A stretch of 63,144 bases of DNA, filler included. It is 7 parts of 7 records of this genome, joined end to end, with 100 filler letters (N's around TTAATTAATTAA, not from the genome) between each part and the next. Parts side by side here need not be neighbours in the genome. Positions count along the whole stretch, not along the records: positions 1 to 15,242 come from SRR31156797_7976; 6 more parts are not named here. One strand, 5' to 3'. The position numbers were made by a program, and so were the translations under genes. Of the stretch, positions 1-27,121 are shown in pieces. Positions within the stretch are counted from its first letter, which is position 1; each line of letters starts with the position of its first letter. Under the pieces are notes generated by a model. The model saw only the letters and a list, made by a program, of their open reading frames with translations, was not told the DNA's origin and ran no database searches.

Positions 1-1
1 C

Positions 2-1933
2 ATCGGTATTGTTGTTGATGACGCCATTGTTGTGGTTGAGGCAGTGCAGTCCAAGATTGATGAGGAGGGCATGGATGCCAAGACGGCTACCAAGGAGGCC
101 ATGAAAGAGGTTTCCGGGCCGATTGTGGCGACCACTGCAGTGCTTATCGCCGTATTCGTGCCAGTGGCCTTTATGGGTGGTATTTCCGGACAGCTTTACA
201 AGCAGTTTGCGCTGACCCTCGCGGTTTCTGTTGCCATTTCGTCCGTTAATGCGCTGACATTTTCCCCGGCCATGTCCGCCTTGCTGCTGCGCCCGCAACA
301 GGATATGCGCGGTCCGCTGGGCTGGTTTTTCAAAAAATTTAATAAATACTTCAGTAAAGTAACATCCGGGTATACTTCAGGGGTCCGCCTTATCCTGCGC
401 AAATCGATTGTTGCGCTGGGTATTTTCGGGGTGCTCATGTTCGGAACCTATTCCCTGTTCCAGACTGTGCCCACGGGATTTGTTCCTAATGAGGACCAGG
501 GGTACTTCATGATCAACGTGCAGTTGCCTGAAGGTGCTTCCCTTGAACGTTCGGATGCGGTGGTAAAGCAGGTTGAAGAGATTTTGAAGAATGAAGCCGG
601 GGTTAAGGACTTTTTCGCCCTTGGCGGATTCAACCTGATTACAGCTGCTTATTCATCCTACACCTCGACCCTTTTTGCCATTCTTGATCCTTGGGATGAG
701 CGAACCGACCCGCAATTGCATGTAAATTCCATTTTGCAAAAGGTTCAGCAGAAGGTCTTCGGTATTCAGGAGGCCATGATTATCTGCTTTAACCCGCCGC
801 CCATTAACGGTATCGGTTCCACTGGCGGATTGCAGTTTGAACTGCAGGACCGTTCCGGCGGAACAGTGGAAGAACTGGCGCAGGCTGCACAGGATTATAT
901 GGCCGAGTTGCGCAAGCATCCCGAGCTTACCGGAATATTCTCCACTTTCAGTGCCAATGTGCCGCAGCTCTTTGTTGATGTTGACCGTGACAAGGTCCGC
1001 AAGCTGGGTATTCCGCTTAATGAAGTGTTCACAGCAATGCAGACCTTTCTTGGCGGATATTACATTAACGATTTCAACAAGTACGGCAGGACCTATAGGG
1101 TCATGGCTCAGGCGGACTCCCAGTTCAGGACAAGCCCTGAGGATGTTTCCAAGTTTTACGTACGCGGAAATACCGGGAAGATGATTCCCCTTTCCACTCT
1201 GCTTAACCAGGAGAAAATCTTCGGACCGGAATATATTCAGCGTTACAATCTCTTCCGGGCCATTGAGATAACAGCCTCCAACGCTCCGGGCTACAGTACC
1301 GGGCAGGCCATGGCGGTAATGGAAAAAGTTGCTCGCGACACCCTGCCCAGAGGCTATGGTTTTGACTGGACCAACATTGCCTATCAGGAGAAAAAGTCAG
1401 GCGGAGAGGTTGTCGTGATCTTTGCGTTGGCAGTTATGATGGTCTTCCTCGTGCTTGCCGCGCAGTATGAAAGCTGGATTATTCCGCTGGCAATTGTTTT
1501 TGCGGTACCGCTGGGTGTGTTCGGGGCTATCTCCGGGCAGTTCCTGCGTGGTCTGGATAACAACGTCTATGCCCAGATCGGTCTGATTATGCTGATTGGT
1601 CTTGCGGCCAAGAACGCAATTCTGATTGTTGAATTCGCCAAGGCCAAGTATGAGCAGGGAGCTTCCCTTGTGGATGCTGCCGTGCAGGCTGCGCAATTGC
1701 GTTTCCGGCCTATTCTGATGACTTCTTTTGCGTTTATCCTCGGTGTAGTGCCGCTGGTTATTGCACAGGGAGCAGGTTCAGCCAGTCGTCATGCTCTCGG
1801 AACTTCGGTGTTTGCTGGTATGATCGCAGCTACAATTCTCGGGGTGCTTTTTGTGCCGCTATTCTACGTGACATTGATCAAGATTCAGAACAGGAAGGGA
1901 ACTGTCGATAAGACAGACTCTCCTGATGATTAG
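2..1933 (+). CDS. RND efflux permease, HAE1 (AcrB/MexB) family; 5' truncated by window edge
   Basis: Frame is open from position 2 (IGIVVDDAIVVVE). Also has GLAAKNAILIVEFA and RFRPILMTSFAFILGVVPL, the AcrB-family signatures. Confidence 0.95.
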   Translation: MGIVVDDAIVVVEAVQSKIDEEGMDAKTATKEAMKEVSGPIVATTAVLIAVFVPVAFMGGISGQLYKQFALTLAVSVAISSVNALTFSPAMSALLLRPQQDMRGPLGWFFKKFNKYFSKVTSGYTSGVRLILRKSIVALGIFGVLMFGTYSLFQTVPTGFVPNEDQGYFMINVQLPEGASLERSDAVVKQVEEILKNEAGVKDFFALGGFNLITAAYSSYTSTLFAILDPWDERTDPQLHVNSILQKVQQKVFGIQEAMIICFNPPPINGIGSTGGLQFELQDRSGGTVEELAQAAQDYMAELRKHPELTGIFSTFSANVPQLFVDVDRDKVRKLGIPLNEVFTAMQTFLGGYYINDFNKYGRTYRVMAQADSQFRTSPEDVSKFYVRGNTGKMIPLSTLLNQEKIFGPEYIQRYNLFRAIEITASNAPGYSTGQAMAVMEKVARDTLPRGYGFDWTNIAYQEKKSGGEVVVIFALAVMMVFLVLAAQYESWIIPLAIVFAVPLGVFGAISGQFLRGLDNNVYAQIGLIMLIGLAAKNAILIVEFAKAKYEQGASLVDAAVQAAQLRFRPILMTSFAFILGVVPLVIAQGAGSASRHALGTSVFAGMIAATILGVLFVPLFYVTLIKIQNRKGTVDKTDSPDD

Positions 1934-1950
1934 CCGATAATTTAAATTCT

Positions 1951-1992
1951 AAAAAAAGACCCCGCCGGAGAATTCCGGCGGGGTCTTTTTTT
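1951..1992. terminator. Bidirectional intrinsic terminator
   Basis: A7-GACCCCGCCGGA / TCCGGCGGGGTC-T7 inverted repeat between convergent genes. Confidence 0.9.
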
Positions 1993-2021
1993 AGGTAATG
2001 ATTTCAAAGGGGATTCTTCTC

Positions 2022-2660
2022 TTATCGTTGTTTTCTGCTTCTCGGGAATAAAAAGTAATGTGTCCAAATTGCGCAGGTAGTGCCGATGAAGCAGCCGAAT
2101 ATTACATCTGCGGGATAGTGCTTGCCCACGACAACTCGGCTGATTCCAACTAATATAGCAAGAATGAGCGGGATATATTTCTTGTGTGGCATAAGCAGGG
2201 CTATCGCTGTGGTTAACGAAAATATGCGCAGGGTGTGCCCTGAAGGAAAGGAATTATACATATATTTACCGGAAAACCAGGTAAAGCCGTATGAGCCGTC
2301 TTCAAAGAACAGTGGTGGACGGCAGCGTCCAAAGAGCCATTTCAGTTCGTCTCCAATGAGCATGGCGGTCATGGTTGAAAATGCCACCAGCAGCAAGGTC
2401 CGGGATCTCTTTTGAAGTCCACCCAGCATGGCGTCAATGCTTCCGCACAATAGGGCCAGAAATGAGATGGTTTGGATGACATGCTTGGAGGCAAGGTCGC
2501 TAAGCAGCTTACCCAGTGTGACCGCAAATGTTCCTTTTAATGTATGGGCCGCTTTGGCTATGGGCAGATCAAAGGATTGGTAAAAGAGAATAATGAGCAG
2601 CAGTGCAGCAAGCGCGCCTGCTGCTGTGTAAAGAGACAACCGTTTGGGATTGCCAATCAT
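2022..2660 (-). CDS. PAP2-family membrane phosphatase
   Basis: Motifs KxxxxxxRP (KWLFGRCRP), SFPSGH and SRxxxxxHxxxD (SRVVVGKHYPAD); several TM segments. Confidence 0.92.
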   Translation of the reverse strand: MIGNPKRLSLYTAAGALAALLLIILFYQSFDLPIAKAAHTLKGTFAVTLGKLLSDLASKHVIQTISFLALLCGSIDAMLGGLQKRSRTLLLVAFSTMTAMLIGDELKWLFGRCRPPLFFEDGSYGFTWFSGKYMYNSFPSGHTLRIFSLTTAIALLMPHKKYIPLILAILVGISRVVVGKHYPADVIFGCFIGTTCAIWTHYFLFPRSRKQR

Positions 2661-2675
2661 GGAAACTCCTCCTTG

Positions 2676-3863
2676 TCAGTTCTGCAGACTTCGGGGACAG
2701 GGATCAACCTCCAGTGGGTCGGCTGAAGGGGAGAGGGGGATTTCCACATAAAAATTGGTGCCGTCATCTTGTGATGAATCAAACCAGACTCTTCCCCGGA
2801 GATAATTTTCAGTGAACATTTTTACACTGTAAGTGCCTAGTCCCCGTCCTTTCCCTTTGGTGGAGAAGGATTTTTTGAATATCTGGTGGGCAATCGTCAT
2901 GGGAATCGTTCCTTGATTGGAGACTGTAAATAGGGCGTGACCGTTTTTAGTTTCGACTTTGATTGCGACAGTGCTGTTTGCCGGAGAGGCTTCAATGGAG
3001 TTTTTAACCAGATTTTCAATTATGCGGTAAAGAATCCGTTTGTCGGTCATCAAGGCGATTTCTTCTACTTCAGATTTGAGGGAAATATTTTTGTCCTTTG
3101 CCATTTGACCGCCAGAGTAGAAGGTGCAGACTGACTCGATAATCTGTTTTACGATTACCGGTTCATTGTGAATCTCGAGCTGTCTGGTTTCAGCGGAGAT
3201 GAACAGTCTGTGGGCGTCAATTTCATTTGCCATGAATTTGGCCCGGTCAACGATCATCCCGGCAAGTTCGCGGTGTTCGCTTTTTACGGCATCTTCTTTG
3301 AGCAATGTCCCGGCGTTGGCAATTCCGTTTACCGCATTGAGCAGGTCATGAAGGAAAACCCGTTCCATCATTTCCTTGTGCTTGCTGTCTGAAATATCGG
3401 TTAGATGGATTATGAAATATTGTTCTTCCCTGATTTTTAAGGGCGATGCATTCACTTTGAATGTATATGCCTTGACCTTGCCGTCTACATTGGACAGCAG
3501 CATACATTCTTCCTCTGCCCTCTCTCCGGTCATGGCTGTCTGGATAGCTCGTAATGCTCCACATTGCACGCAGGGAACCGCGTCACCACACCTGCTTTTT
3601 TCTGAGTTGCAACAGCGGAGCAGTTCGCCGGGGCGACGGCCAAGAATCATATTTGCCCGTATTTCCCCGACCGCAGAGGAAAGGGTGTCGTTGTATTGAA
3701 TGATTCTTCTGTCGTTGTTGAGAATAAAGGCTGGGTTAGGTACGGAATTGATTAATTCCGCTGCAACGTCTTTCTTTATCCTTTCGTGTTGATCCAGAAT
3801 ATCCGGGCTGCAAGGATTGAAATCCTCTACCGGACAACCTTGGGAATATACGTCTTCGCTCAT
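2676..3863 (-). CDS. Cytoplasmic sensor histidine kinase with Cys-rich PAS-like domain
   Basis: H-box FLHDLLN, N-box ENLVKNSIEA, G2 GRGLG; N-terminal PAS-like region with C-x7-CG-x4-C-x2-C. Confidence 0.9.
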   Translation of the reverse strand: MSEDVYSQGCPVEDFNPCSPDILDQHERIKKDVAAELINSVPNPAFILNNDRRIIQYNDTLSSAVGEIRANMILGRRPGELLRCCNSEKSRCGDAVPCVQCGALRAIQTAMTGERAEEECMLLSNVDGKVKAYTFKVNASPLKIREEQYFIIHLTDISDSKHKEMMERVFLHDLLNAVNGIANAGTLLKEDAVKSEHRELAGMIVDRAKFMANEIDAHRLFISAETRQLEIHNEPVIVKQIIESVCTFYSGGQMAKDKNISLKSEVEEIALMTDKRILYRIIENLVKNSIEASPANSTVAIKVETKNGHALFTVSNQGTIPMTIAHQIFKKSFSTKGKGRGLGTYSVKMFTENYLRGRVWFDSSQDDGTNFYVEIPLSPSADPLEVDPCPRSLQN

Positions 3864-3887
3864 GCAATATCTCGTGGGGCTTTTGGG

Positions 3888-4322
3888 CTAGTGACCTTTA
3901 TAAAAAAGCAGAGAATTACCATCTCCTTCCATATAAAGCATGCCATTTCGTTCCTGCATGGTTTTAACCCTTTCCAAAGCCTGCATGAATTTGAATTCCT
4001 GTAGATTCATGTTCTTGGGGCATGCTTTGCGGGTCATGGCCAGCGGGCCGGTACTGAATTGTCCGTTCACATAAGTGTAGTCACCGCGAAAGCTGTTGCA
4101 GCCTCCGGAGCCGTAGATTTTACCGTTGCTGTCAAGGCGCATCCAGATATGGGCGAATCCTCCGATGGGTTTACCGTCAATATCTTCTGCAATCCATTTG
4201 GTGTTCGTGGGGTTTTCATAAACAGGATAGTAGGTCTGTTTTGGTGCGCAGCCTGAAAGAAGTATAAATGAGCAGACTGTTAAAAGCGGCAGAATAATTT
4301 TTTTCAAATTAGCTGTTTTCAT
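3888..4322 (-). CDS. META-domain (HslJ-like) lipoprotein
   Basis: Lipobox LSGC; GSGGCNSFRG...GPLAMTRKAC META pattern; GGAGG SD favours ATG 4322. Confidence 0.85.
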   Translation of the reverse strand: MKTANLKKIILPLLTVCSFILLSGCAPKQTYYPVYENPTNTKWIAEDIDGKPIGGFAHIWMRLDSNGKIYGSGGCNSFRGDYTYVNGQFSTGPLAMTRKACPKNMNLQEFKFMQALERVKTMQERNGMLYMEGDGNSLLFYKGH

Positions 4323-4406
4323 GAAAGGTTCCTCCATAGACTGAATTGTACTTTGAAATATCCCTTATTAACAGAAAAATATCAAAGAAATTACCGGAGA
4401 ACGTCC

Positions 4407-5165
4407 CTAGATACCGCAGAGCATATAGCCGAGGATAAGGCTGCATTTTTCAATGCAGGAAGGGTAAAATTGCTTATGTTGTTTTGTGCGGGAACGGTTC
4501 TCTTTACCGTAATAGAACTCTGCAATTCCCTGCGGTGTATAACCGTTGCAGGCAGCGAAGTTCAGCAATTTTGGGGCGCAGCAATCCCCGGTTCCGGTGG
4601 GGATTCCTTTTGAGCCATATATTATTTCGGGCATGGGCCGGGGTTCGGTGCGGAAATTATGGACTTTGTAGATGGCGTGGATTTCGCGCATCAAGTTTTG
4701 TGAGAGCTTTTTGCGCCGGGAAGAAAGGACAGCATAATCCGCAGTTCCGGGTGTAAGTTCGGCCATTTCACGGCCGATTCTCTTGATTTCCTTTTCTGTG
4801 GATTCGGTCAGGGTCTGAAATTCGTGCGGGTTGATAATCGGGCTTACCCAGCCGGGAATTTCCCAGTGTCCGTTGTACTGTCCGGAAAAAGCTTTTGCTG
4901 ACTGTTTACATCCATCATGGTCCAGATAGGTCATGATCCCGAACATCTGACCACGTGCATTGCCGAAAAGGTAGTCGGTTGAAAAATCAGGGTTGCTTTT
5001 TTCCGGGGGCAGGTCAAAGTCTGTGCGTTTTTCGCTGTCCAGTTTCTGCATTAATTCAAGGCAGAGATGTACCGTTTTTCCCGGACCTAAGGTGTGGGTG
5101 GTTTGGCACCGGGAGCAGTACCCGGAGCAGGATATGTTGCTTTCAAATATTTCCGTGCCGTGCAT
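4407..5165 (-). CDS. Stand-alone homolog of the N-terminal (deaminase) region of TrcP/long RluA-type proteins
   Basis: Motifs GQMFG, AFSG, GTGDCCAPKLL, AEFYYG, FYPSCIEKC, ILGYML; no pseudouridine-synthase domain follows. ATG 5165 preferred because 5190-5220 is the greA terminator hairpin. Confidence 0.7.
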   Translation of the reverse strand: MHGTEIFESNISCSGYCSRCQTTHTLGPGKTVHLCLELMQKLDSEKRTDFDLPPEKSNPDFSTDYLFGNARGQMFGIMTYLDHDGCKQSAKAFSGQYNGHWEIPGWVSPIINPHEFQTLTESTEKEIKRIGREMAELTPGTADYAVLSSRRKKLSQNLMREIHAIYKVHNFRTEPRPMPEIIYGSKGIPTGTGDCCAPKLLNFAACNGYTPQGIAEFYYGKENRSRTKQHKQFYPSCIEKCSLILGYMLCGI

Positions 5166-5274
5166 GTGAACGCCCGCTAATGATGATAAAAACGGGGATG
5201 CGCCATGGCACACCCCCGTTAATTGTATTAATTCAGAACCTGCGGCCCTGTTACTGGCTGACGGAAAACCTGTT

Positions 5275-5760
5275 TTATTGGGAAATAGGTCCGTTAAAAA
5301 TTATGGAGACAATTCCGTATTCGATTTTGCCTTTGGGTGCGTTGACTATAACTTCATCGCCTTCAATTTTACCGAGCAGGGCTTTACCAACCGGGGATTC
5401 AATGGAGATGATACCTTTTTTGAAATCGCTCTCATCAGGTCCCATGATGGTGTAAGTCTTTTCGTCGCCGGTATCGATGTCTTCGAGAGTCACAGTTGCT
5501 CCGAAGGTGATCTTTTCTCCGCCGAGGGTGGTCATGTCTACAACGTTGAACTGGGGAATGCGGGACTCAATGTAATTGATTTTCGCTTCAAGCATTCCCT
5601 GTCTTTCACGGGCTGCGTGGTAACCGCCGTTTTCTTTCAGGTCGCCTTCTTCACGGGCTTCCGCAATGGCTTTGATTACTTCAGGGCGCTCTTTTTTCAG
5701 AGTTGCCAGCTCCGCTTTGATTTTTGCAAATCCTTCTTTTGAAATGGGTATATTGCTCAT
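5275..5760 (-). CDS. greA: Transcription elongation factor GreA
   Basis: AREEGDLKENGGYHAARE and ISIESPVGKALLGK motifs. Confidence 0.97.
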   Translation of the reverse strand: MSNIPISKEGFAKIKAELATLKKERPEVIKAIAEAREEGDLKENGGYHAARERQGMLEAKINYIESRIPQFNVVDMTTLGGEKITFGATVTLEDIDTGDEKTYTIMGPDESDFKKGIISIESPVGKALLGKIEGDEVIVNAPKGKIEYGIVSIIFNGPISQ

Positions 5761-6162
5761 TCCATAAACCTCAAATTATTCCGTCGTTGTCAATAAAAAT
5801 GCAGCCACTGCCGAAAATGCTTTTACGGAAGTGAAGCTGCTTTGGGTACAGGTTGCAGGGCAACCAATCAGTTGCTGAAAGTTCTGGGTAGAACATCCTT
5901 TGAACTAGGTCAAGTCGCTTTTGACATTAGATGGCTGGTTTGACTTTTTTTGCAATCTTAAGAGTATGTTGTCGCGTAGAATAATGTTTTGTAATTTTCA
6001 TTTAATACCGCTGTAAGGTTTCATAATTTATAATTGTAGCAGTAATAAATTGGTTTTATTGAAAGTTTTTTATGGAAAAAACGAGCTTTTTTTTATTGAT
6101 TTTTACGGATAAATAAAACTTTGTATTGAATTTTTATATATTATGTTTGAGAGGGTGTTGCG

Positions 6163-7353
6163 GTGGCGGATGATATCAAAATTATTAAAAAGAAAGACGT
6201 TAAACCGGGAATGTACGTCCAGAGCTACGGAGCCGGGACTTTTCAAGATCCTCTGGTTGAGGTCGGTAAATATATTGAGTCATACGAGGATATTGCTAAG
6301 TATCTACCTGATGATACCGAAAAGGTAGAGATAATAAGCGGTAAAGTCCTGCCGAATATGGGGTATGCTTGTGATAAAGGTGCAATGACCGCCGAAGACG
6401 CAGCCCGGAATATGGCTGACGCCTTACCTGAAGCGCGTAGGGTTCATGAAGAAGCTCTGAATTATGCCCGTAAGTTTATAGATGACGTGCGTAAGGGCAA
6501 GACCGTGGCTGTTGAAGACGCCGCACCCATCGTCGGCGAGGTTATTGATAGTCTGACAACCAATGAACCTGCTGCTCTGACCCTCGCTTTTTTAAAGAGA
6601 TATGATGAGTACACCTATACTCACAGTATTAATGTAAACCTTTATTCTTTGTTACTGGGTAAGGCTCTTGGGTTGCAGCGTGAGGAGCTTGAAATGCTCG
6701 GTATTGCAGCCTTGTTTCATGATGTGGGTAAAGGGCGCATTCCCAACACGGTCCTTAATAAGCCTGGTAAGCTTACAGATTCTGAATATGAAGTAATGAA
6801 AAGCCATTCACAGAAAGGACTGGACGTTTTGAAAGGAGTTGAGGGGCTAGACCGTGCTGTTTTGCGAGGTGTGGTCGAGCACCATGAACGGTTTGACGGA
6901 AACGGTTACCCCAAAGGGGTCAAGGGGGATGATATTCATCCTTTTGGACGGATTATTGCCATCAGCGATGTCTATGATGCTTTGACCAGTGTCCGAGTAT
7001 ATAAAAAAGCCATAACCCCGGCCAAGACCTTGAGCCAGATGTATAAATGGAAGGGAACTGATTTCGATCCTGCCTATTTGAATCGTTTTATCCGGGTGAT
7101 GGGTATTTATCCTCCGGGAACCATGGTCCAGCTGGATGATTTACGCTTTGCTCTTGTGCTGGAAACGAATGAGACCAAACCCCGGCATCCCAAGGTTAAA
7201 GTGTTGTTTAATAGCAAGATGCAGCCTATTTTGTCTGAATGCCTTGATCTAGCCACTTATGAAAAGGGTGGTCAGAAAGTTCAGGTTATGCGCCAGCCAG
7301 ATCCTCAGTCCTTAGGGGTCGACATGCAGCAACTTTCACGTTTTTTAGTCTAA
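6163..7353 (+). CDS. HD-GYP domain c-di-GMP phosphodiesterase (DUF3391-like N-terminus)
   Basis: YTYTHSINV, FHDVGK, HHERFDGNGYP and DVYDALTS motifs. Confidence 0.93.
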   Translation: MADDIKIIKKKDVKPGMYVQSYGAGTFQDPLVEVGKYIESYEDIAKYLPDDTEKVEIISGKVLPNMGYACDKGAMTAEDAARNMADALPEARRVHEEALNYARKFIDDVRKGKTVAVEDAAPIVGEVIDSLTTNEPAALTLAFLKRYDEYTYTHSINVNLYSLLLGKALGLQREELEMLGIAALFHDVGKGRIPNTVLNKPGKLTDSEYEVMKSHSQKGLDVLKGVEGLDRAVLRGVVEHHERFDGNGYPKGVKGDDIHPFGRIIAISDVYDALTSVRVYKKAITPAKTLSQMYKWKGTDFDPAYLNRFIRVMGIYPPGTMVQLDDLRFALVLETNETKPRHPKVKVLFNSKMQPILSECLDLATYEKGGQKVQVMRQPDPQSLGVDMQQLSRFLV

Positions 7354-7476
7354 ATTATATAAGATATTAATTGGCAGCCGTAATCAGATTATTCTGTTTA
7401 CGGCTTTTTTTGTCAGTTATTTCAGTGTAATGATGTTGTTTCTGTGAAAAGGTGAATGTTAGTTCGACTTTTTGGC

Positions 7477-7505
7477 TTGACTTAAGATGAACTAAGGTTC
7501 ATTTT
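7477..7505 (+). promoter_or_regulatory. Putative sigma70 promoter overlapped by a palindromic (TetR-type) operator
   Basis: TTGACT at 7477, then ATGAAC-TAAG-GTTCAT palindrome at 7487-7502, upstream of the methyltransferase-tetR pair. Confidence 0.55.
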
Positions 7506-7529
7506 ATAAAAAAGTGGAGGTAAATAGTT

Positions 7530-8111
7530 ATGGCAAAAGATTCTAAGAACAACGATAGCATGCACGTCTGTCCGTGGTGGGTGGCTTATACTTTTGACAA
7601 CAAACTGCGCAGGGTGATTGATCCCGCTGAAAAGGCTCTTGGGCAATGGGTACGTCCGGGAATGAGTGTGCTGGATTTCGGTTGCGGTTTGGGGCATTAT
7701 TCCATCGGTGCGGCGAAGCTGGTGGGCAATGAAGGCAAAGTGATTGCAGTTGATTTGCAGGAAAAGATGCTTGAAATTGCCTCCAAAAGAGCCTGTAAAG
7801 CCGGTGTAGACGGGATTATCTCCCTGCATCAGTGTACAGCAGAGAGAATCGGGTATTCGGGCAAGGTTGATTTTGTTATTGCCGGGAATGTAATTCATGA
7901 AACTCAGGATCAACGTGGAGCTTTGCAGGAAATTTTCAATTTACTCGTCCCTGGGGGCGGCTTTCTTCTTACTGAGCCGCGCAACCATGTCAGGGCTGAT
8001 TTTTTTGAGCAGGAATTGAACACTGCTCTTGAAATCGGTTTTGAAGTGAATAAGTTGCCGCCATCTTTTATGGCCCGTAAGGCTTATTTGCGTAAACCTG
8101 AAACTTATTAA
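7530..8111 (+). CDS. Class I SAM-dependent methyltransferase
   Basis: VLDFGCGLG motif I, VIAVDLQ motif II, LVPGG. Confidence 0.9.
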   Translation: MAKDSKNNDSMHVCPWWVAYTFDNKLRRVIDPAEKALGQWVRPGMSVLDFGCGLGHYSIGAAKLVGNEGKVIAVDLQEKMLEIASKRACKAGVDGIISLHQCTAERIGYSGKVDFVIAGNVIHETQDQRGALQEIFNLLVPGGGFLLTEPRNHVRADFFEQELNTALEIGFEVNKLPPSFMARKAYLRKPETY

Positions 8112-8127
8112 ATTTTAAAGGATCAAG

Positions 8128-8745
8128 ATGATACGCAAGCATGGAAACTTCGAACCTGTGCAAGACAGGGCGGATGTGACCAGAAATGATATCTTGGAAG
8201 CGGCTCTGGAGGTCTTTTCTGAAAAGGGGTACGCCGGAGCCAATACCAAAAACATTGCCGCCGCTGCCGGGGTCGCCACCGGATCAGTATACCGCTACTT
8301 TAAGAATAAAAAGGTGATCTTCATTGAAGTAATGAACATGCTTCAAGGTCGGATGAGTTTTGATATCTTTGCCAAGGCCCGAACCACGCTTGATGAAGGT
8401 AAGCCGTTTCGTGAGGCTTTGCGCATGCTGGGAGTTTATTCTGTTGAGTCACATCGCAGCAACCGTATGTTTTTTCGCGAAGTAATGGCCCTTGAAGCCA
8501 CTGATGATGAAATTTCGGCTATTGGTCTTGAGCGGGACCGCAGGATTCGTGAAAAACTGCTGGGCTTTTTGGATTCTCAGAAGAGTCATCTAAAAGTGGA
8601 CGATCTTGAAGCTGCTGCCGAACTGGTTTATCTGGTGGTAGAAGAGGTCTCGCATCAAGCGGTTATCTTTGATTCCGACGTAGGTGAAGAGCGTCTGGTT
8701 TCCCAGATGGTGAGGATGCTTGAAGGATATCTGCTCGGTGTATAG
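8128..8745 (+). CDS. TetR/AcrR-family transcriptional regulator
   Basis: ILEAALEVFSEKGY...IAAAAGVATGSVYRYFKNK HTH. Confidence 0.93.
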   Translation: MIRKHGNFEPVQDRADVTRNDILEAALEVFSEKGYAGANTKNIAAAAGVATGSVYRYFKNKKVIFIEVMNMLQGRMSFDIFAKARTTLDEGKPFREALRMLGVYSVESHRSNRMFFREVMALEATDDEISAIGLERDRRIREKLLGFLDSQKSHLKVDDLEAAAELVYLVVEEVSHQAVIFDSDVGEERLVSQMVRMLEGYLLGV

Positions 8746-8765
8746 TTCCGGCTTTTATTGTCTCG

Positions 8766-9065
8766 TCATATAACAAATTCCATTTCAGCGAAGAGATTGT
8801 CTTCATCGTAGAGGCCCGGAAATCTGGTTGATATTTCGTTAATGGTTGCGAAATAAGCATCCCAGCCCAGAACCTGAGCCTCTTTTTTCTTATTCACAAA
8901 AATTTTAAATGTGGTTCCCTTGGGGCATTTGGTCATGTTGAGTTCCAGTACCCCCGCCTTGGTTGTTTCCAGCCAGACCGCCGACCATGCCGTGCGGTCG
9001 CCTTCTGTTTTTTTGTATTTTTCAAAGTAGGCTTCAAATATTCTCTCGACCTCTTCTCGATTCAT
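8766..9065 (-). CDS. Hypothetical protein (99 aa)
   Basis: Clean ORF with AAGGAG SD and protein-like composition; no family recognised. Confidence 0.7.
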   Translation of the reverse strand: MNREEVERIFEAYFEKYKKTEGDRTAWSAVWLETTKAGVLELNMTKCPKGTTFKIFVNKKKEAQVLGWDAYFATINEISTRFPGLYDEDNLFAEMEFVI

Positions 9066-9946
9066 TAGTGTACTCCTTATATATAGATTGCGTTTTGAGC
9101 ATAACTTTTTTGTTTGAAAGTGGGCAAGTCGTCAGCGTGGATGCTTTTGTTTTGTCGTCTGCGCTACTGAGGCTTAATGAGGTTTTAGCCGACATATTTG
9201 TAGAGTGGAATTGTCGTGTGAGTAGTTTTTTGTCAAAAATGTAATTTTTTAGAAAGAGAAGTCCGAAAGAGATTGCGCCGAGGGTCTGCTTGTTTTGTGC
9301 TTCTATCCACAAGCCTGATTTCTGGCTGAATAATTACGCGATCAATAATTGGTGAAGCATGTTTTGGACAGCTAGTAATCACTTTTTGCCAAAAGCAGAA
9401 TAGTGCGTTCAGATAAATTGCCACTTTGGTATGTTTTGTGTCTTGCTTCTTTGTTCCGTGTGTTTATTATTAAAAATTATAAGTGGTTATGTGGAGTTGT
9501 GTGTCGTCGGTTTAGAGCGCGCTGAGTGGGGCTTAAGGGGGTGCTAATCCATTTTTAACTTCGAAAATGGGCTGTGCTGGATTTAAAATCTTCATAATTG
9601 TATTTTTGTTTGCCAAAATTGTTTTTTTCTGACATTGTCAAATCTCTGAATCGCTCTAGTCTTTAAAAAATGATCTTTATATCCTGATTTCGATTCAATT
9701 TCAGATTCCTGAAAAGCGGTTGTGCCAATTTTGAGAGATGAAAAAACTCAAAATGTCAAAAAAGAATAGGCACCCATTACTAATTTCGAAATATCACCTG
9801 ATTAGAGCCGTATTGGCTGATACATTTTTCAATGAAAACGCGTCAGCTGCCTGCCGGAAACCTTCCAGAGCTTCGGAACCGTCCGACTCCTGCCTCCCGG
9901 GCCGCTGCACCTGTTGAACCTTATAATCATGGAGTGAGCTGACAAT

Positions 9947-11083
9947 ATGTGCCGTTTATTTGCGCTTACAAGTCGCGACCCGATTTCACCCATGCTGGCC
10001 ATCAATGCCCTTAATACAATGAAAGAAGGTCATGACGGCTCCGGCGTAGGTCTCTGTCTCAGGGGACTGGGCGGTCGTTTTGAAGAAGAATTGCAGGGCT
10101 GTCCCATTCTTTCCGGTATTTTTACCGAAGCCGGTCTGCGTAGACTGGAACAATACACCATGGACCATGGTTTCAAGTCCCAGTACAGCATTCTTTATAC
10201 CCCGGAGACCGAACCGCCGGAAGGCACCCCTGTCCGCGGCACATACGCGGCCATTGCTTATAAGGTTCCTAAGGGGTGGAAAGAGCTTACTCCTGAGCAG
10301 CAGGGCCAGAAGCTTGTCCAGATGAGATTGGACCTTCGGCGCATGGGCGAAGAAGACGGCGATATTATGGTTTTCTCCTTCTGGCCCGATACCATCATTG
10401 TAAAAGAAGTCGGCGATCCCCTTGAGATTGGTGAATGGCTCCAGCTTGGCTCCAACCGCAATCTTTATGCCCGCCACATTTTGGCTCAGGGTAGGCAAAA
10501 TACCAACTATGCCATCAACCTCTACGCCTGCCACCCTTTCTTTATTGAAGGCGTAGCCACCATGACCAACGGTGAGAACACCGCATTCATTCCTATTAAG
10601 GAATATCTGCAGTCAAGAAATGTTACCGGGTATTCCGGATACCAGTCCGATTCCGAGGTCTTCACTCATATCGCGCATTACACCACCAAGCGTCTGGGGC
10701 TGGACATTCGTGCTTACAAGCACATCATTACCCCGCTGATGGACCATGAAATGGCCGATCACCCGGACCGCGAATTCCTCGCGACCCTGAAACGTTCCTG
10801 TCGCAAGATGATTATTGACGGCCCCAACTGTATTATCGGAACCCTTGATGACGGTTCCATGTTCATGGTTCAGGACCGCAAGAAGCTTCGCCCCGGCATT
10901 GTGGGCGGTAAAGACGGCATTTACGCCTTCTCTTCCGAAGTCTGTGGCATCGACGCTGTCATTCCCGACCGCGATAAGTCCAAAGACTTCCAGCCCATGC
11001 ACCTCGATACAGTAATCGTCGGACCCGACTGCAAGGAGATACAGACATGCTCACAGAAAGACCAATTACCCCGTCAACTTTAG
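9947..11083 (+). CDS. gltB1: Glutamate synthase, class II glutamine amidotransferase subunit (split type)
   Basis: N-terminal nucleophile Cys (MCRLF), HDGSG, RQNTN, HPF, NGE, SDSEV, DRKKLRP. Confidence 0.88.
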   Translation: MCRLFALTSRDPISPMLAINALNTMKEGHDGSGVGLCLRGLGGRFEEELQGCPILSGIFTEAGLRRLEQYTMDHGFKSQYSILYTPETEPPEGTPVRGTYAAIAYKVPKGWKELTPEQQGQKLVQMRLDLRRMGEEDGDIMVFSFWPDTIIVKEVGDPLEIGEWLQLGSNRNLYARHILAQGRQNTNYAINLYACHPFFIEGVATMTNGENTAFIPIKEYLQSRNVTGYSGYQSDSEVFTHIAHYTTKRLGLDIRAYKHIITPLMDHEMADHPDREFLATLKRSCRKMIIDGPNCIIGTLDDGSMFMVQDRKKLRPGIVGGKDGIYAFSSEVCGIDAVIPDRDKSKDFQPMHLDTVIVGPDCKEIQTCSQKDQLPRQL

Positions 11084-12681
11084 GCGTTAAAGACCTGAAC
11101 TGGCAGATCGAGTGGGACAAGGATCTCTGTACCCAGTGCGGTCGCTGCACCTCCGTCTGCCCGGTTAACGCAATTGAACTCGGTGTTCATCGTAAGCGCG
11201 AGATCAAGACTCCCGCGAGCTTGATGAAAAAGGCCGAGAACGAATATTCTATTTTTTACGGCATCCGCCAGAAGACCGACCCGGCCTACGCTTGTATCGG
11301 CTGTTCCATGTGCAACATGGTCTGTCCTAACAATGCTATCGGTCCTAAGCGCGAAGAAGGTTCCACCACTCAGAAATTCCACAATGACCGTGGCGGTAAC
11401 CCCCGCACACGTGGTGGACGCCGCAACTCCGGTGAATCCCTGCTGGACCAGATCAAGTTCATGCGTATCTCCATGCTCACCGACCCCGCGCTTGACGCAG
11501 GTCGCCATGAGTTCCGCTTGAATACTCTGCTTGGACGCGTGCAGTCTCCCGAAGAAAGTTTGAAAACTTATCAGGAGCACGGCTGGAAGCCCCCGGTTCG
11601 CGAGATCTACCCGCTGGTCATCGGCGGCATGTCTTTCGGGGCTATGTCTCCCAATATGTGGGAAGGTCTGCAGATGGGTGTTGCCTACCTGAACGAAGAG
11701 CTGAACATGCCCGTACGCATATCTACAGGTGAGGGCGGTTGTCCTCCCCGTTTGCTCCGTTCACGTTTCCTTAAATACGTAATTCTCCAGATCGCATCCG
11801 GTTATTTTGGCTGGGATGAAATCATCCACGCCATTCCGGAAATGAAGGTCGACCCCTGCGCCATTGAGATCAAGTACGGTCAGGGTGCAAAGCCCGGTGA
11901 TGGCGGACTGCTCATGTGGTACAAGGTTAACAAGCTTATAGCCGCCATTCGCGGTGTTCCCGAGGGAGTAAGCCTGCCCAGTCCCCCGACCCACCAGACT
12001 CAGTATTCTATTGAGGAATCTGTAGCAAAGATGATCCAGTCCATGAGTATGGCCTGGGGATTCAGGGTTCCTGTCTATCCTAAAATTTCCGCCTCTTCCA
12101 CATCGCTGGCGGTTCTTAACAACCTGACCCGTAACCCCTACGCCGCAGGTCTGGCTATCGACGGTGAAGACGGTGGTACCGGGGCGGCATACAACGTTTC
12201 CATGAACCACATGGGACACCCCATCGCCAGTAACCTGCGCGATTGTTACAATGCTCTGGTTGTTACCGGTAAGCAGAATGAATTGCCCCTCATTGCTGGC
12301 GGCGGTATAGGTAAATCCGGCAACCTCGCGGCCAACGCTGCTGCACTGATTATGCTCGGCGCAAGTGCCGTTCAGGTTGGTAAGTACGTTATGCAGGCCG
12401 GAGCGGGTTGTCTCGGTTCCGAAAAAGACCGCTGCAACGTCTGTAACATCGGCGTATGTCCCAAGGGTATTACTTCTCAGGACCCCAGACTTTACCGTCG
12501 CCTTGATCCTGAAAAGGTCGCCGAAAGGGTTGTTGACTTCTATCTGAGCTTTGACACTGAAATCAAAAAGATTATCGCCCCTCTGGGCCGCTCCACCTCA
12601 TTGCCCATCGGCATGGCGGATGCGCTTGGTATCAGTGACCGTGATGCTGCTGACAGACTCGGCATCAAGTACGTGGTTTAA
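11047..12681 (+). CDS. gltB2: Glutamate synthase FMN-binding subunit with N-terminal 2x[4Fe-4S] ferredoxin
   Basis: CTQCGRCTSVCP and CIGCSMCNMVCP; MSFGAMS, TGEGG, EIKYGQGAKPGDGG, DGEDGGTGA, C-terminal Cys cluster ending CPKGITSQDP. Confidence 0.92.
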   Translation: MLTERPITPSTLGVKDLNWQIEWDKDLCTQCGRCTSVCPVNAIELGVHRKREIKTPASLMKKAENEYSIFYGIRQKTDPAYACIGCSMCNMVCPNNAIGPKREEGSTTQKFHNDRGGNPRTRGGRRNSGESLLDQIKFMRISMLTDPALDAGRHEFRLNTLLGRVQSPEESLKTYQEHGWKPPVREIYPLVIGGMSFGAMSPNMWEGLQMGVAYLNEELNMPVRISTGEGGCPPRLLRSRFLKYVILQIASGYFGWDEIIHAIPEMKVDPCAIEIKYGQGAKPGDGGLLMWYKVNKLIAAIRGVPEGVSLPSPPTHQTQYSIEESVAKMIQSMSMAWGFRVPVYPKISASSTSLAVLNNLTRNPYAAGLAIDGEDGGTGAAYNVSMNHMGHPIASNLRDCYNALVVTGKQNELPLIAGGGIGKSGNLAANAAALIMLGASAVQVGKYVMQAGAGCLGSEKDRCNVCNIGVCPKGITSQDPRLYRRLDPEKVAERVVDFYLSFDTEIKKIIAPLGRSTSLPIGMADALGISDRDAADRLGIKYVV

Positions 12682-12710
12682 CAATAGCTCACGATTTACG
12701 GAGATTTAAA

Positions 12711-15038
12711 ATGGCAACAGAAAAAATATGCATTAGCGGTCTTGAAGAAGGCGCCCGGATTGAATCCCGCATCCTTGAAGAGCGGATTCAGAAAGCGGTT
12801 GCCGATGGAGCCCGCAAGCTTGAAATAGACGCCATGGGCCAGCACGGCATTGGCGGACGGCTTTGGATTTCCAAGGAAGAACCTATTGAGATTGACGTTA
12901 TCGGCACATCCGGTCAGCGTCTCGGTTCCAAGGGCTTCCCCGGTACTGTAATCAACGTTCACGGTTCAGTTTCCGATGACGTTGGTTGGCTCAACGCCGG
13001 TGCTGAAATCATCGTCCACGGCAATGGTTCCAATGGCGCATGTAACGCCATGGCGCAGGGTAAAGTCATTGTTAACGGTGACATCGGTGCCCGCGGCATG
13101 ACCATGACCAAGACCAACCCCCGCTTTGATCCGCCCGAACTCTGGGTGCTCGGCGGAGTTGGTGATTATTTCGCAGAATTTATGGCTGGCGGTACCGCAG
13201 TAGTCTGTGGCTTTGAGCCTCAGAACCCTGAAAACGTGCTCGCATTCCGTCCCTGTGTCGGTATGGTTGGCGGTCGCATTTTCGTACGCGGACCCCACGG
13301 CGAATTCTCCACTGCCGACGCTATCCTCGAACCCATCACTGATGCGGATTGGGAATGGCTGACCAGTAATCTGAAAGATAATCTCGCCAAGATCGGTCGT
13401 GAAGATGTTTACGATTCCCTGACCGAACGTAAGGAATGGCAGCTCATCCGCGCCAAGTCTCCTTTTGAGAAGACCGGGCGCAAGCGTCGCTCCATGTCTG
13501 AATTCCGTTCCCAGGTATGGGACGGCGAGCTTGGACAGGGCGGTCTTATTGGCGATCTTACCGACCTTGACCGTTCTCCCGTGCCGCTGATTACTTCCGG
13601 CGAATTGCGCCGTTTTGTTCCGGTCTGGGAAAACCGCAAATATCAGGCTCCCTGTCAGTCTTCCTGTCCTACCGGAATGCCTGTGCAGAAACGTTGGCAG
13701 TTGGTCCGTGACGGCCTTGTAGATGAAGCTGTGGACCTCGCCCTTGCATATACTCCTTTTCCCGCAACTGTTTGCGGTTACCTCTGCCCTAACCTCTGTA
13801 TGGAAGGTTGTACCCGCGGCGTGAAAGATTTGCTTTCCGTGGACATCACCAAGCTGGGCCGCGAGGGCGTGAATAGCCCCGCACCTGAGCTGCCGCCCCT
13901 TTCCGGTAAGAAAGTTGCGGTTATCGGTGGTGGTCCCGCCGGTATTTCTGTCGCTTGGCAGATTCGCCGCAAGGGACATGAAGCAGTTGTTTACGACATG
14001 GCAGACAAGCTCGGCGGAAAGATTACTTCTGCCATTCCTTCCAGTCGTATCCCCAAGGACGTGTTGGATTCCGAGTTGGAGCGTGTAGCCAAGGTTATTC
14101 CTCACGTACACATGCAGAAGAAGCTGACAGCTGATGATTTTGCCGAACTGCGCCAGAACAGCGACGCAGTTGTGCTTGCTATCGGTGCCCAGAAGCCGCG
14201 CATCATTCCCATTCCCGGTCATGAGCGCATTACCCCGGCCCTTGATTTCCTCAAGAACGCCATGAAGGGTAGGGCTGAAGTGGGCGAAAAAGTGGTCATC
14301 ATCGGTGCGGGTAATGTTGGTTGTGACGTTGCTACCGAATGTTCTCGTCTCGGCGCTAAAGATATTCTGCTTATTGATATTCAGAAGCCTGCCGCGTTCG
14401 GTAAAGAGCGTGACGAAGCAGAAGAGGCCGGAGCAAAATTCCGCTATCCCTGCTTCACTCAGGAAGTTACCGATGAAGGCGTTGTGCTTAAGTCCGGCGA
14501 AGTTCTCCCGGCTGACACTGTCATTATGTCCATTGGTGATACTCCGGATATCGAGTTCCTGCCCGACACCATTGCTCTTGATCGCGGTCACATCGTGGTT
14601 AACGAAGATTATCAGACTACCGAACCCGGTGTTTACGCCATCGGTGATGCTGTTCGTCCCGGTTTGCTTACCCACGCCATCGGCCATGGTCGTGAGACAG
14701 CCGAGACTCTCGATGAAGTCTTTACTGGCAAGCGTCCTCACGCTGAACCCAAAGACGTCATTGATTACAAACGCATGACTCTTGAATACTTCGACCCGCG
14801 TCTGACCGAATTCAAGGATTTTCAGGAATGTGCTCAGGAATGTTCTTCCTGCGGTTCCTGCCGTGATTGCGGTCTGTGCGAAACAGTCTGTCCGCAGGCT
14901 GCTATCTCCCGCAAGGGACTTGAAGGCAAGGATTTCGAAATGGCTTGTGATCCTGAAAAATGCATTGGTTGCGGTTTTTGCGCCAATGTCTGCCCCTGCG
15001 GTATCTGGAATCTCGTAGAGAATAGCCCCATGGGATAA
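12711..15038 (+). CDS. Fusion of GltB3 (GXGXG beta-helix), GltD-like FAD/NAD(P)H oxidoreductase and C-terminal ferredoxin
   Basis: GDYFAEFMAGG GXGXG region; APCQSSCP...CGYLCPNLCMEGCTR; VAVIGGGPAG; IGAGNVGCD; two CxxCxxCxxxCP motifs at the C-terminus. Confidence 0.9.
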   Translation: MATEKICISGLEEGARIESRILEERIQKAVADGARKLEIDAMGQHGIGGRLWISKEEPIEIDVIGTSGQRLGSKGFPGTVINVHGSVSDDVGWLNAGAEIIVHGNGSNGACNAMAQGKVIVNGDIGARGMTMTKTNPRFDPPELWVLGGVGDYFAEFMAGGTAVVCGFEPQNPENVLAFRPCVGMVGGRIFVRGPHGEFSTADAILEPITDADWEWLTSNLKDNLAKIGREDVYDSLTERKEWQLIRAKSPFEKTGRKRRSMSEFRSQVWDGELGQGGLIGDLTDLDRSPVPLITSGELRRFVPVWENRKYQAPCQSSCPTGMPVQKRWQLVRDGLVDEAVDLALAYTPFPATVCGYLCPNLCMEGCTRGVKDLLSVDITKLGREGVNSPAPELPPLSGKKVAVIGGGPAGISVAWQIRRKGHEAVVYDMADKLGGKITSAIPSSRIPKDVLDSELERVAKVIPHVHMQKKLTADDFAELRQNSDAVVLAIGAQKPRIIPIPGHERITPALDFLKNAMKGRAEVGEKVVIIGAGNVGCDVATECSRLGAKDILLIDIQKPAAFGKERDEAEEAGAKFRYPCFTQEVTDEGVVLKSGEVLPADTVIMSIGDTPDIEFLPDTIALDRGHIVVNEDYQTTEPGVYAIGDAVRPGLLTHAIGHGRETAETLDEVFTGKRPHAEPKDVIDYKRMTLEYFDPRLTEFKDFQECAQECSSCGSCRDCGLCETVCPQAAISRKGLEGKDFEMACDPEKCIGCGFCANVCPCGIWNLVENSPMG

Positions 15039-15100
15039 TATATAGTCTTAAAGAATGGGAGATCCGGGCGGTCCGGTGATCCTGTATGGATTCTAAGATG

Positions 15101-15133
15101 AAAGCCCTGCTGAAGCGATTCAGCAGGGCTTTT
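15101..15133 (+). terminator. Intrinsic terminator of glutamate synthase operon
   Basis: AAAGCCCTGCTGAA-GCGA-TTCAGCAGGGCTTT perfect stem-loop. Confidence 0.85.
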
Positions 15134-15135
15134 AT

Positions 15136-15242
15136 GCTGTTGATAAAGCACTATCTGCGTCGTTGCTGCAAAAAAGGCTGAAACTCGCGTATGTTGATAC
15201 GCGTCGTTCCAGCCTTTTTCTTGCGCCTAGCATCTGGCACTT
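15136..15242. repeat. Palindromic intergenic repeat (MITE/REP-like), cut by contig end
   Basis: Nested inverted repeats AAAAAGGCTGAAAC/GTTCCAGCCTTTTT and CGCGTAT/ATACGCG; the contig ends inside it. Confidence 0.55.
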
Positions 15243-15342
15243 NNNNNNNNNNNNNNNNNNNNNNNNNNNNNNNNNNNNNNNNNNNNTTAATTAATTAANN
15301 NNNNNNNNNNNNNNNNNNNNNNNNNNNNNNNNNNNNNNNNNN
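15243..15342. other. Artificial contig spacer
   Basis: 44 N + TTAATTAATTAA (stops in six frames) + 44 N. Confidence 0.99.
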
Positions 15343-24718: not shown

Positions 24719-24818
24719 NNNNNNNNNNNNNNNNNNNNNNNNNNNNNNNNNNNNNNNNNNNNTTAATTAATTAANNNNNNNNNNNNNNNNNNNNNNNNNN
24801 NNNNNNNNNNNNNNNNNN
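24719..24818. other. Artificial contig spacer
   Basis: 44 N + TTAATTAATTAA + 44 N. Confidence 0.99.
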
Positions 24819-25006: not shown

Positions 25007-26059
25007 ATTAAAACAGCTATATCACTCTTCTCAAGTGCAGGCATTGGCGAAATGTTTTTAAATGATATTGATATCAATACTATTAAAGCAAACGAGTTAT
25101 TACCTCAGCGAGCTGCTCTTTATAGTAAAATACATAATGCCGATGTGATGATTCAAGGTAACATCATGGAGTCAAAAGTCTTTAAAGAGTTTAAAGAATT
25201 TGAACATAAATTTGATTTACTAATTGCAACTCCACCCTGTCAAGGTGTCAGTATCGCAGGCAAAAATAGAGATATTGACAAAATGTCACTAGATGAAAGA
25301 AATTATCTGATATACAAAGTTATAGAATTTGTTTATTTAAAAAATCCTCCTTATGTGCTTATAGAAAATGTTCCAATGTTCTTAAAATTACACCTTCCAT
25401 ATAAAGGAAAACTTACCCAAATAAAAGATATCTTACATTCAGAGTTTAGTAACAAGTATGAAATAACATTAGATATTATGGACTCTGCTGATTTCGGCAC
25501 ACCGCAAAAAAGAAAAAGATCAATAATAAGAATGTATCAAAAAGGTTTATCATGGGATTATCCATCTAAACAAAAGCACATAACTGTTCATGATGCTATT
25601 AGCCACTTGCCTAGCATAGAGTCTGGTGAACACTCCGGCATCCCTTGGCACTTTGCCAGAAAACACATTGATCGCCACATTTTATGGATGAAACATACTC
25701 CAACAGGAAAAAGTGCCTTTGAGAACCCTGAATACTACCCTGCAAAACCTGACGGTAGCCGCATTAAAGGATACAACTCAACCTACAGACGAATCAAGTG
25801 GGATGAACCTGCACCCTCAATAACAATACGCAATGATGCGATTAGCTCGCAAAGAAATGTCCACCCAGGAAGAAAGCTGTTGGACAATACTTATTCTGAT
25901 GCAAGAGTTTTAAGTCCTCACGAGCTTCTACTACTAACAGGTATCTCACCTGATAAAATAAAAACTGAAGACACCTCTGAAATATTACTAAGGCAATGCT
26001 TAGGAGAATGTGTCCCCCCAAAATTAATAAATACAATCGTTGAAAAAATAGGTGTCTAA
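25007..26059 (+). CDS. DNA (cytosine-5) methyltransferase 1, HgaI-like; probable ATT start
   Basis: Motif I SLFSSAGIGE lies upstream of the first ATG (25052); PPCQG, ENVP, Q-x-RxR and GECVPP motifs; AGGAG SD 7 nt before ATT 25007. Confidence 0.9.
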   Translation: MKTAISLFSSAGIGEMFLNDIDINTIKANELLPQRAALYSKIHNADVMIQGNIMESKVFKEFKEFEHKFDLLIATPPCQGVSIAGKNRDIDKMSLDERNYLIYKVIEFVYLKNPPYVLIENVPMFLKLHLPYKGKLTQIKDILHSEFSNKYEITLDIMDSADFGTPQKRKRSIIRMYQKGLSWDYPSKQKHITVHDAISHLPSIESGEHSGIPWHFARKHIDRHILWMKHTPTGKSAFENPEYYPAKPDGSRIKGYNSTYRRIKWDEPAPSITIRNDAISSQRNVHPGRKLLDNTYSDARVLSPHELLLLTGISPDKIKTEDTSEILLRQCLGECVPPKLINTIVEKIGV

Positions 26060-26062
26060 ACT

Positions 26063-27121
26063 ATGAGTTTAAAAGGTTTGTCATTATTTTCAAGCGCAGG
26101 CATCGGTGAAATGTATCTAAAAGATATTGATGTCGATATCATTGCCGCAAATGAACTTATAGAAAAACGAGCTGAGTTATACAAACACATTCATCCTTTT
26201 TCAAAAATGATTACTGGTGATATTAAAGAAAAGTATATTAAGAGAATGATTTTAGATGCAATAAGTCATGAACTTGATATTCTGATTGCAACACCTCCTT
26301 GCCAAGGACTAAGTTCATTAGGTAAAAATAAAAAACAAGAGCATTTTGAGTTAGATGAAAGAAACTATCTCATTTTTGATATCTTCTACTTTATAGACAA
26401 ACTAGATTTTAATTACATATTAATTGAAAATGTCCCTAAATTTTTAGAAATGTATTTCCCTTATAATAATTCAATAGCAAAACTTGATGAAATCCTAAAA
26501 TCAAAATATCAACGTGATTACAATATTGACATTCGAATACTAGATGCTAAGCATTTTGGAGTACCACAATCTCGACCACGTGCCGTAATAAGAATGTATA
26601 AAAAAGGTCTCACATGGAAGCTTCCAGTACAGGAAGATATATTAACTCTTAGGGATGCTATTGGGCACCTACCTAGCTTAGAGTCTGGTGAAAACTCTAA
26701 TATACCTTGGCACTTTGCTAAAAAACATAACGATAGAGCACTAGAAGCCTTAAGACATACACCCACGGGACAAAGCGCTTTCAAAAATAAAACTTATTAT
26801 CCAAAAAAAGAAAATGGTGAAAAAATTAAGGGCTTCCATAACACCTATAAAAGGCTACATTGGGATCAACCATGTCATGCTAGAACAACCTATTGCGGAA
26901 GTATAAGTTCTCATAATAATGTTCACCCTGGGAGAAAAAATGTTGACGGCACATTCTCAGATGCAAGAGTCTTAACCCTTTTAGAGACCTTCATTGTTTC
27001 ATCTTTGCCACCCTCACCTTCTTTCCCAAATAACTTGTCTGATTCTTTTATAAGAACTATGATTGGAGAGAGTATTCCTCCATTAATGTTAAAAAAGATT
27101 ATTAATGGAATAGTAAGGTAA
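26063..27121 (+). CDS. DNA (cytosine-5) methyltransferase 2, HgaI-like
   Basis: SLFSSAGIGE, PPCQG, ENVP, QSRPR, GESIPP; clear paralog of the upstream MTase with a different TRD segment. Confidence 0.93.
   Translation: MSLKGLSLFSSAGIGEMYLKDIDVDIIAANELIEKRAELYKHIHPFSKMITGDIKEKYIKRMILDAISHELDILIATPPCQGLSSLGKNKKQEHFELDERNYLIFDIFYFIDKLDFNYILIENVPKFLEMYFPYNNSIAKLDEILKSKYQRDYNIDIRILDAKHFGVPQSRPRAVIRMYKKGLTWKLPVQEDILTLRDAIGHLPSLESGENSNIPWHFAKKHNDRALEALRHTPTGQSAFKNKTYYPKKENGEKIKGFHNTYKRLHWDQPCHARTTYCGSISSHNNVHPGRKNVDGTFSDARVLTLLETFIVSSLPPSPSFPNNLSDSFIRTMIGESIPPLMLKKIINGIVR

Follow-up and report, generated by a model that had tools for sequence, protein, structure and literature searches.

The window analysed here is a stretch of 63,144 nucleotides (nt) in which seven contigs are joined end to end, and its subject is a minus-strand gene at 4407–5165 (stop codon at 4407–4409) whose 252-amino-acid (aa) product resembles the deaminase domain of TrcP (VC_A0104), the enzyme that edits C32 of tRNA-Tyr to pseudouridine in Vibrio cholerae (Kimura et al., 2022; PMC9553926). 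We present evidence that this gene probably encodes one half of a two-protein version of that editor, the other half being a separately encoded pseudouridine synthase.

The deaminase gene

Read from its ATG, the protein carries in order the motifs GQMFG (from residue 72), AFSG (92), GTGDCCAPKLL (191), AEFYYG (215), FYPSCIEKC (233) and ILGYML (244), after which the open reading frame (ORF) stops, as well as an N-terminal CSGYCSRC beginning at residue 13 and followed by H24. The initial annotation of this DNA, made from its letters alone, had named all of these motifs in this order, including the N-terminal CSGYCSRC..TH cluster, though with no strand given, and its description of a compact, ~250-aa protein with a stop codon of its own, some 70 nt from a META-domain gene, is likewise accurate: the downstream minus-strand gene at 3888–4337 encodes a META-domain protein (PF03724, E-value 2.1e-22) across a gap of 69 nt, and no PF00849 (PseudoU_synth_2) domain was found in the deaminase ORF with Pfam. 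Sequence searches of Pfam, NCBIfam and the PDB with the 252-aa ORF gave no match. The ORF is nevertheless real, well beyond chance, as 1296 proteins of similar length match it at E ≤ 0.001 and its ratio of nonsynonymous to synonymous substitution rates (dN/dS) is 0.105–0.139 against the four closest orthologues, values that also place the gene under purifying selection.

Upstream of the gene lies greA, and between greA and the start codon is a terminator-like minus-strand hairpin (5191–5220; 13 pairs, eight of them G–C, then a T-rich tail) that is identified by its match to the consensus only. An alternative GTG start at 5213, which would give a protein of 268 aa, was rejected because orthologues begin at the same MHGTE and because this hairpin, read from 5220 to 5191, covers the GTG.

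Homology to the TrcP deaminase domain

A translated search of a plasmid collection returned 18 records (eight from Vibrio, three from Pseudoalteromonas and one from Photobacterium among them; E-values down to 4e-20), in which the matching genes are annotated as RluA-family pseudouridine synthases. This collection supplied the 559-aa V. campbellii TrcP orthologue that serves as the Vibrio reference in our alignments; a search for Vibrio TrcP by way of cluster names yielded none, as 0 of the 10 clusters looked up came from Vibrio. BLASTP aligns the window protein with the V. campbellii orthologue at an E-value of 6e-27 over the catalytic half and 2e-06 over the part with GxMFG and AFSG, and hhalign of the family profile against the same protein gives a probability of 100% and an E-value of 6.3e-40, with query residues 69–252 matched to Vibrio residues 64–348. 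In this alignment C195, E216, C237 and C241 of the window protein fall on C282, E303, C324 and C328, which in V. cholerae TrcP are the three zinc ligands and, as E303, the catalytic glutamate, all four of them essential (Kimura et al., 2022). The V. cholerae TrcP model deposited by those authors agrees in both numbering and flanking residues (E281-C282, A284-P285-K286-L287, A302-E303, G307, K327-C328), and together with the V. campbellii alignment this allows the four residues to be equated across the two proteins. None of the four varies among 74 unfused sequences, all of the 298 full-coverage family domains retain them, and they delimit a predicted catalytic core at residues 195–241 (4443–4583, minus strand). 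By sequence comparison, then, the 252-aa protein is a homologue of the TrcP deaminase domain with all four catalytic residues in place, and both the TrcP-type identity that had been proposed for it and the proposed check, alignment of the zinc-ligand cysteines with those of TrcP, came out positive, with the catalytic glutamate aligned as well.

A probable partner synthase beyond the contig end

The seven contigs are separated by six 100-nt spacers (15243–15342, 24719–24818, 30133–30232, 39478–39577, 46649–46748 and 55879–55978), in each of which TTAATTAATTAA stands between two runs of 44 N, and only positions 1–15242 are physically linked to the deaminase gene. Over their full extent these positions are collinear with one genome (G145; 85.9% identity), and they match Maridesulfovibrio sp. 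FT414 gene for gene in collinear order. G145 has a stand-alone TrcP-type synthase gene (214 aa) whose end, with the stop codon counted in, lies 20 nt short of the position corresponding to the end of this contig, so that the missing synthase is an artefact of the window, the spacer at 15243–15342 standing where relatives have the partner gene. No TrcP-type synthase signal was found in any frame of at least 40 aa in the window, but we rejected this as evidence, and the case is a caution that not finding a partner gene counts for nothing when a window consists of joined contigs. The statement in the initial annotation that there is no pseudouridine synthase does not survive this comparison: a separate TrcP-type synthase is present in every genome of the genus examined and is presumably hidden here by the contig end.

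Across Maridesulfovibrio, the deaminase was found in 26 of 26 genomes (52–88% identity), always unfused, and a TrcP-type synthase 78–100% identical to the FT414 protein (P0403) was found in the same 26. The two genes are on the same contig in every case, 1.1–16.6 kb apart, with the synthase upstream on the same strand in 23 genomes (at 1.1–12.9 kb), 12.2 kb downstream in one, and about 16.5 kb away on the opposite strand in two. The survey for unfused homologues with a synthase nearby that had been suggested at the outset thus found both throughout the genus, and the concern that close relatives might all carry a fused synthase, which would make this copy a truncated remnant, did not apply. 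In a wider sample of 121 genomes of the family, 14 hold the deaminase and the identical 14 hold the synthase (E ≤ 1.6e-73, 54–100% identity), while the best match of the synthase search outside these 14 reached an E-value of 7e-32 and at most 43% identity.

The partner is also distinct from ordinary members of its family. The TrcP-type synthase model gives true partners 318–338 bits and ordinary RluA-type paralogues at most 137 bits, and a tree unites the split partners, the unlinked FT414 gene among them, with the synthase domains from fused proteins in a single 100-tip clade. The HRLD motif with the catalytic aspartate is invariant in 55 partner proteins and missing from the deaminase protein. 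The earlier suggestion that the deaminase works in trans with a separate RluA therefore stands in part: a separate synthase fits best, but by the tree that synthase is a cognate TrcP-type enzyme and not the housekeeping RluA.

Formats of the family across bacteria

Beside the 1296 matches of near-query length there are 1566 longer ones, and nearly all of the 120 longer matches listed carry PF00849. The deaminase family comprises 1110 clusters at 50% identity and has at least 600 matches in species-representative genomes. Formats were counted at the best 80 loci, which come from many phyla: the synthase gene directly follows the deaminase gene in 51, lies upstream of it in four and is fused with it in one ORF in six, and there is no synthase in the locus in 19, six of which have too little flanking sequence to tell. 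Among the 51 adjacent pairs, the genes overlap by 4 nt in 18, by 11 nt in nine and by 8 nt in four; as the synthase has its own start codon in another frame, these are coupled genes rather than sequencing frameshifts, and one split pair, on a Desulfobaculum plasmid, is annotated as such in RefSeq. This plasmid-borne pair lies at L128:3001–4449 on a 72.5-kb plasmid of Desulfobaculum bizertense, where the annotated ‘hypothetical protein’ (start 3109) is probably too short because the conserved N-terminal cysteine cluster is in frame from 3001.

In a tree of 298 deaminase domains the fused and unfused forms intermingle, giving 24 maximal clades that are purely unfused and 20 that are purely fused (‘unfused’ here covering split and partner-less forms together), and the window protein falls in an unfused clade of 69. 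Genomes of loci without a synthase were searched with a partner profile, several of them being incomplete assemblies. The partner was found on another contig in two (G148, 349 bits; G150, 326 bits), one genome is intermediate (G151, 209 bits), and three reach only 123–131 bits (G149, G152, G156). Six Bacteroidota genomes with the short form reach only 95–112 bits, against 164–302 bits for fused long-insert proteins, one Bacteroidota member of which scores 239 bits; these six may hold truly partner-less copies, with the qualification that several assemblies are incomplete. At another locus (L036:5968–7285) two short synthase fragments (71 and 81 aa), seemingly a decaying partner gene, come after an intact deaminase gene. 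In a further variant, P0179 (477 aa), the place of the pseudouridine synthase is taken by SGNH/GDSL hydrolase domains (PF13472, PF00657) joined to the deaminase domain.

Predicted structure, helical insert and second Cys/His site

An AlphaFold model built from the alignment of the 74 unfused sequences (mean predicted local distance difference test, pLDDT, 95.3; predicted template modelling score, pTM, 0.91) shows an alpha/beta core with an inserted two-helix hairpin at residues 113–165 (4671–4829, minus strand; helices 113–135 and 142–165, pLDDT 95). The hairpin is a short counterpart, of about 54 aa and at the same place, of the long helical domain of TrcP, and it includes R150-R151-K152-K153, of which R151, like S155, is at least 90% conserved in the 74 sequences. 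The insert of the Vibrio orthologue is about 90 residues longer, and the six basic residues mapped for tRNA binding in TrcP fall in the segment missing from the window protein. The helical linker is thus much shorter than that of TrcP, as had been noted at the outset, but a short linker is not peculiar to free-standing forms: among the 298 domains, unfused relatives have a median insert of 61 aa and fused ones of 60.5 aa.

The authors of the TrcP study saw the similarity to known deaminases (3oj6, 4eg2) only once the helical domain had been removed (Kimura et al., 2022). Because no insert shorter than 45 aa occurs among the 298 family domains, the catalytic half was modelled alone. Foldseek found nothing at E ≤ 0.001 with the full model and nothing with the catalytic-half model. 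In the wide VIA-align search and in a second look over the Foldseek list, matches were filled by hairpin residues 112–165, so that neither search probed the deaminase core, and the ESM Atlas returned clusters of the same family only. The match to the zinc cytidine-deaminase fold of the 3oj6/4eg2 type is weak and tied with unrelated entries.

The N-terminal cluster (residues 13–24, with C13, C17, C20 and H24; 5094–5129, minus strand) lies on a beta-hairpin of strands 13–17 and 22–26 in the model. C17, C20 and H24 are at least 90% conserved in the 74 unfused sequences, in which C250 (codon 4416–4418, minus strand) is invariant, and across the 298 domains the three N-terminal residues are present or absent together with C250. 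Of the 188 unfused domains 179 have the complete set, as do 59 of the 110 fused ones, while 30 fused domains lack all four residues. The Vibrio protein is without the set, the C250 position being Gln in the V. campbellii orthologue, and position 337 of the V. cholerae TrcP model is likewise not Cys. We infer that C17, C20, H24 and C250, with C250 as the putative fourth ligand, form a site for a structural metal by which both chain ends are held together. In the closest orthologue, that of G145 (L118:17791–18561; 88% identical, 256 aa), the N-terminal cluster carries a tandem four-residue duplication (CSGY twice).

Other features of the window

Positions 2022–5165 were compared with FT414 (G001:C1:2606791–2609855). 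Genes there for the deaminase, the META protein, a histidine kinase and a PAP2 protein share only 52–61% identity, whereas the flanking greA, AcrB and glutamate-synthase-like genes are 85–96% identical, which marks this as a locally fast-evolving block. The GC fractions of the seven segments are, in order, 0.485, 0.432, 0.346, 0.364, 0.371, 0.340 and 0.302. A break in composition at 24 kb was considered as a genomic island and rejected, since two contigs meet there. None of five Maridesulfovibrio genomes matches segment 2, so more than one organism may be mixed in the window. The low-GC segments hold housekeeping genes (those for YidC, CTP synthase and TsaE), and two tandem C-5 cytosine DNA methyltransferase genes (PF00145, E-value about 1e-45 each) lie at 25052–27121 on an unrelated low-GC contig.

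A probable split editor and its alternatives

Our preferred reading, to which we give a probability of roughly 0.7, is that the product of the gene is the cytidine-deaminase subunit of a TrcP-like editor, naturally split into two proteins, that converts C to pseudouridine in tRNA. A single zinc held by C195, C237 and C241 would act with E216 to deaminate cytidine to uridine, the most likely target, by analogy with V. cholerae, being C32 of tRNA-Tyr. The two-helix hairpin may help to hold the tRNA, and the C17/C20/H24/C250 site may bind a structural metal that ties the chain ends together. The TrcP-type synthase, encoded about 9–10 kb away in the genus and here presumably beyond the contig end, would then turn U32 into pseudouridine, either in a non-covalent complex with the deaminase or alone. 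The tRNA-Tyr of the genus encodes C32 and is 98–99% conserved, a test that is permissive only. Contigs from four metatranscriptome runs cover tRNA-Tyr and, among the differences listed, show none at C32 (L124 position 1533), though such contigs drop minority variants and come from unassigned organisms; one 91-nt contig over tRNA-Tyr had zero differences. One point weighs against the split editor, in which the association of deaminase and synthase is putative: the separated halves of V. cholerae TrcP yield no pseudouridine in vitro (Kimura et al., 2022).

The same in vitro work found that the N-terminal part of TrcP alone turns C32 to U and goes no further, which, with an ORF that ends at its own stop, could be taken to mean a stand-alone C-to-U editor whose product either stays U or passes to the housekeeping RluA, the nearby TrcP-type synthase being unrelated. 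There is indeed no shared operon in the genus, where the two genes can be more than 16 kb apart or on opposite strands, and no synthase above 112 bits in the six short-form Bacteroidota genomes. We nevertheless consider such a role unlikely: the synthase is present in 14 of 14 family genomes with the deaminase and 0 of 107 without it, as well as throughout the genus, the partner sits inside the clade of fused TrcP synthase domains, and V. cholerae RluA is normally inactive on tRNA-Tyr (Kimura et al., 2022). The earlier idea of an enzyme that edits C to U only is on these counts unsupported, and the window gene is probably not a lone editor. A comparably small chance attaches to the same chemistry on a different substrate, with the short hairpin and the N-terminal Cys/His module redirecting the enzyme to another tRNA, position or RNA. 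In favour of this, the protein lacks the patch with which the long helical domain binds tRNA, nothing in Vibrio TrcP corresponds to its first 68 residues or its second Cys/His site, and its divergence is fast (57% identity to FT414 for the deaminase against 85–96% for neighbouring genes); yet the genus retains a well-conserved tRNA-Tyr with C32, and the partner is of the RluA-type family, whose fused members their sources call tRNA pseudouridine-32 synthases. That the gene is an inactive remnant of a once-fused one is very improbable, even though the form characterized in the literature is fused and a decayed synthase gene does follow an intact deaminase gene at L036, and we rejected this explanation in view of purifying selection, invariant catalytic residues and presence in every genome of the genus, to which the confidence of the structural model can be added.

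Beyond the split editor, a broader and decidedly tentative idea is that the TrcP deaminase module is a self-sufficient RNA C-to-U editor of about 250 aa, able, with its own second metal site and short hairpin, to recognize RNA unaided and deployed in three formats: fused, split and without a cognate synthase. It would then be a free subunit with an unlinked partner in Maridesulfovibrio, contrary to the failure of the separated V. cholerae halves, and in Bacteroidota (six of six genomes checked) it would act without any TrcP-type synthase. If this were true, plain tRNA C-to-U editing would exist in bacteria.

Significance and comparison with known systems

TrcP is the only described bacterial C-to-pseudouridine editor. 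According to the one study found to characterize it, all homologues carry both domains (PMC9553926), a 2025 paper treats TrcP as Vibrio-specific so far, and a 2026 review gives it one sentence. We found no description of split or stand-alone TrcP forms in the accessible text of Creative Commons PubMed Central papers and bioRxiv preprints. The deaminase module is nonetheless widespread and most often encoded apart from its synthase, which raises the mechanistic question of how two separate proteins might do what the separated V. cholerae halves could not, and the family suggests that compact RNA cytidine deaminases occur naturally.

Several known systems bear on this comparison. The zinc deaminases represented by blasticidin-S deaminase and cytidine deaminase (PDB 3oj6 and 4eg2) have no detectable sequence similarity to the window protein, and the catalytic glutamate of TrcP is discussed as lying on a different structural element than in those enzymes (PMC9553926). 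RluA, the tRNA pseudouridine-32/23S rRNA pseudouridine-746 synthase, is of the same family as the partner, and it targets anticodon-loop position 32, which is also the presumed site of editing; it carries PF00849, which the deaminase ORF lacks. Closer to the window protein are fused short-insert TrcP-like proteins of 445–545 aa, which are 41–53% identical to it over 75–100% of the query and share the same short insert, with the second Cys/His site in 59 of 110, but, unlike it, have PF00849 on the same chain. Our search of the Creative Commons papers and preprints found no characterization of these proteins.

The TrcP of V. cholerae itself remains the best point of reference. Editing by TrcP has been linked to iron availability (abstract of PMC9553926), and the V. 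campbellii orthologue (L127:1961–5477) adjoins a TonB-dependent siderophore receptor gene, a neighbour that fits this link. TrcP and the window protein share a homologous deaminase domain with identical spacing of the zinc cysteines and glutamate (21/21/4), split by a helical insert at the same place, and a TrcP-type synthase accompanies the deaminase in every genus relative examined. They differ in that TrcP unites the two activities in one polypeptide whereas the genus has two polypeptides from two genes, and in that the TrcP insert is a 135-aa three-helix domain with a basic patch whereas that of the window protein is the short hairpin without the mapped patch. The window protein also has, unlike Vibrio TrcP, the conserved C17/C20/H24/C250 site and an N-terminal stretch of 68 residues that cannot be aligned. 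What is new relative to TrcP is therefore the split format, the short helical hairpin and the second Cys/His site.
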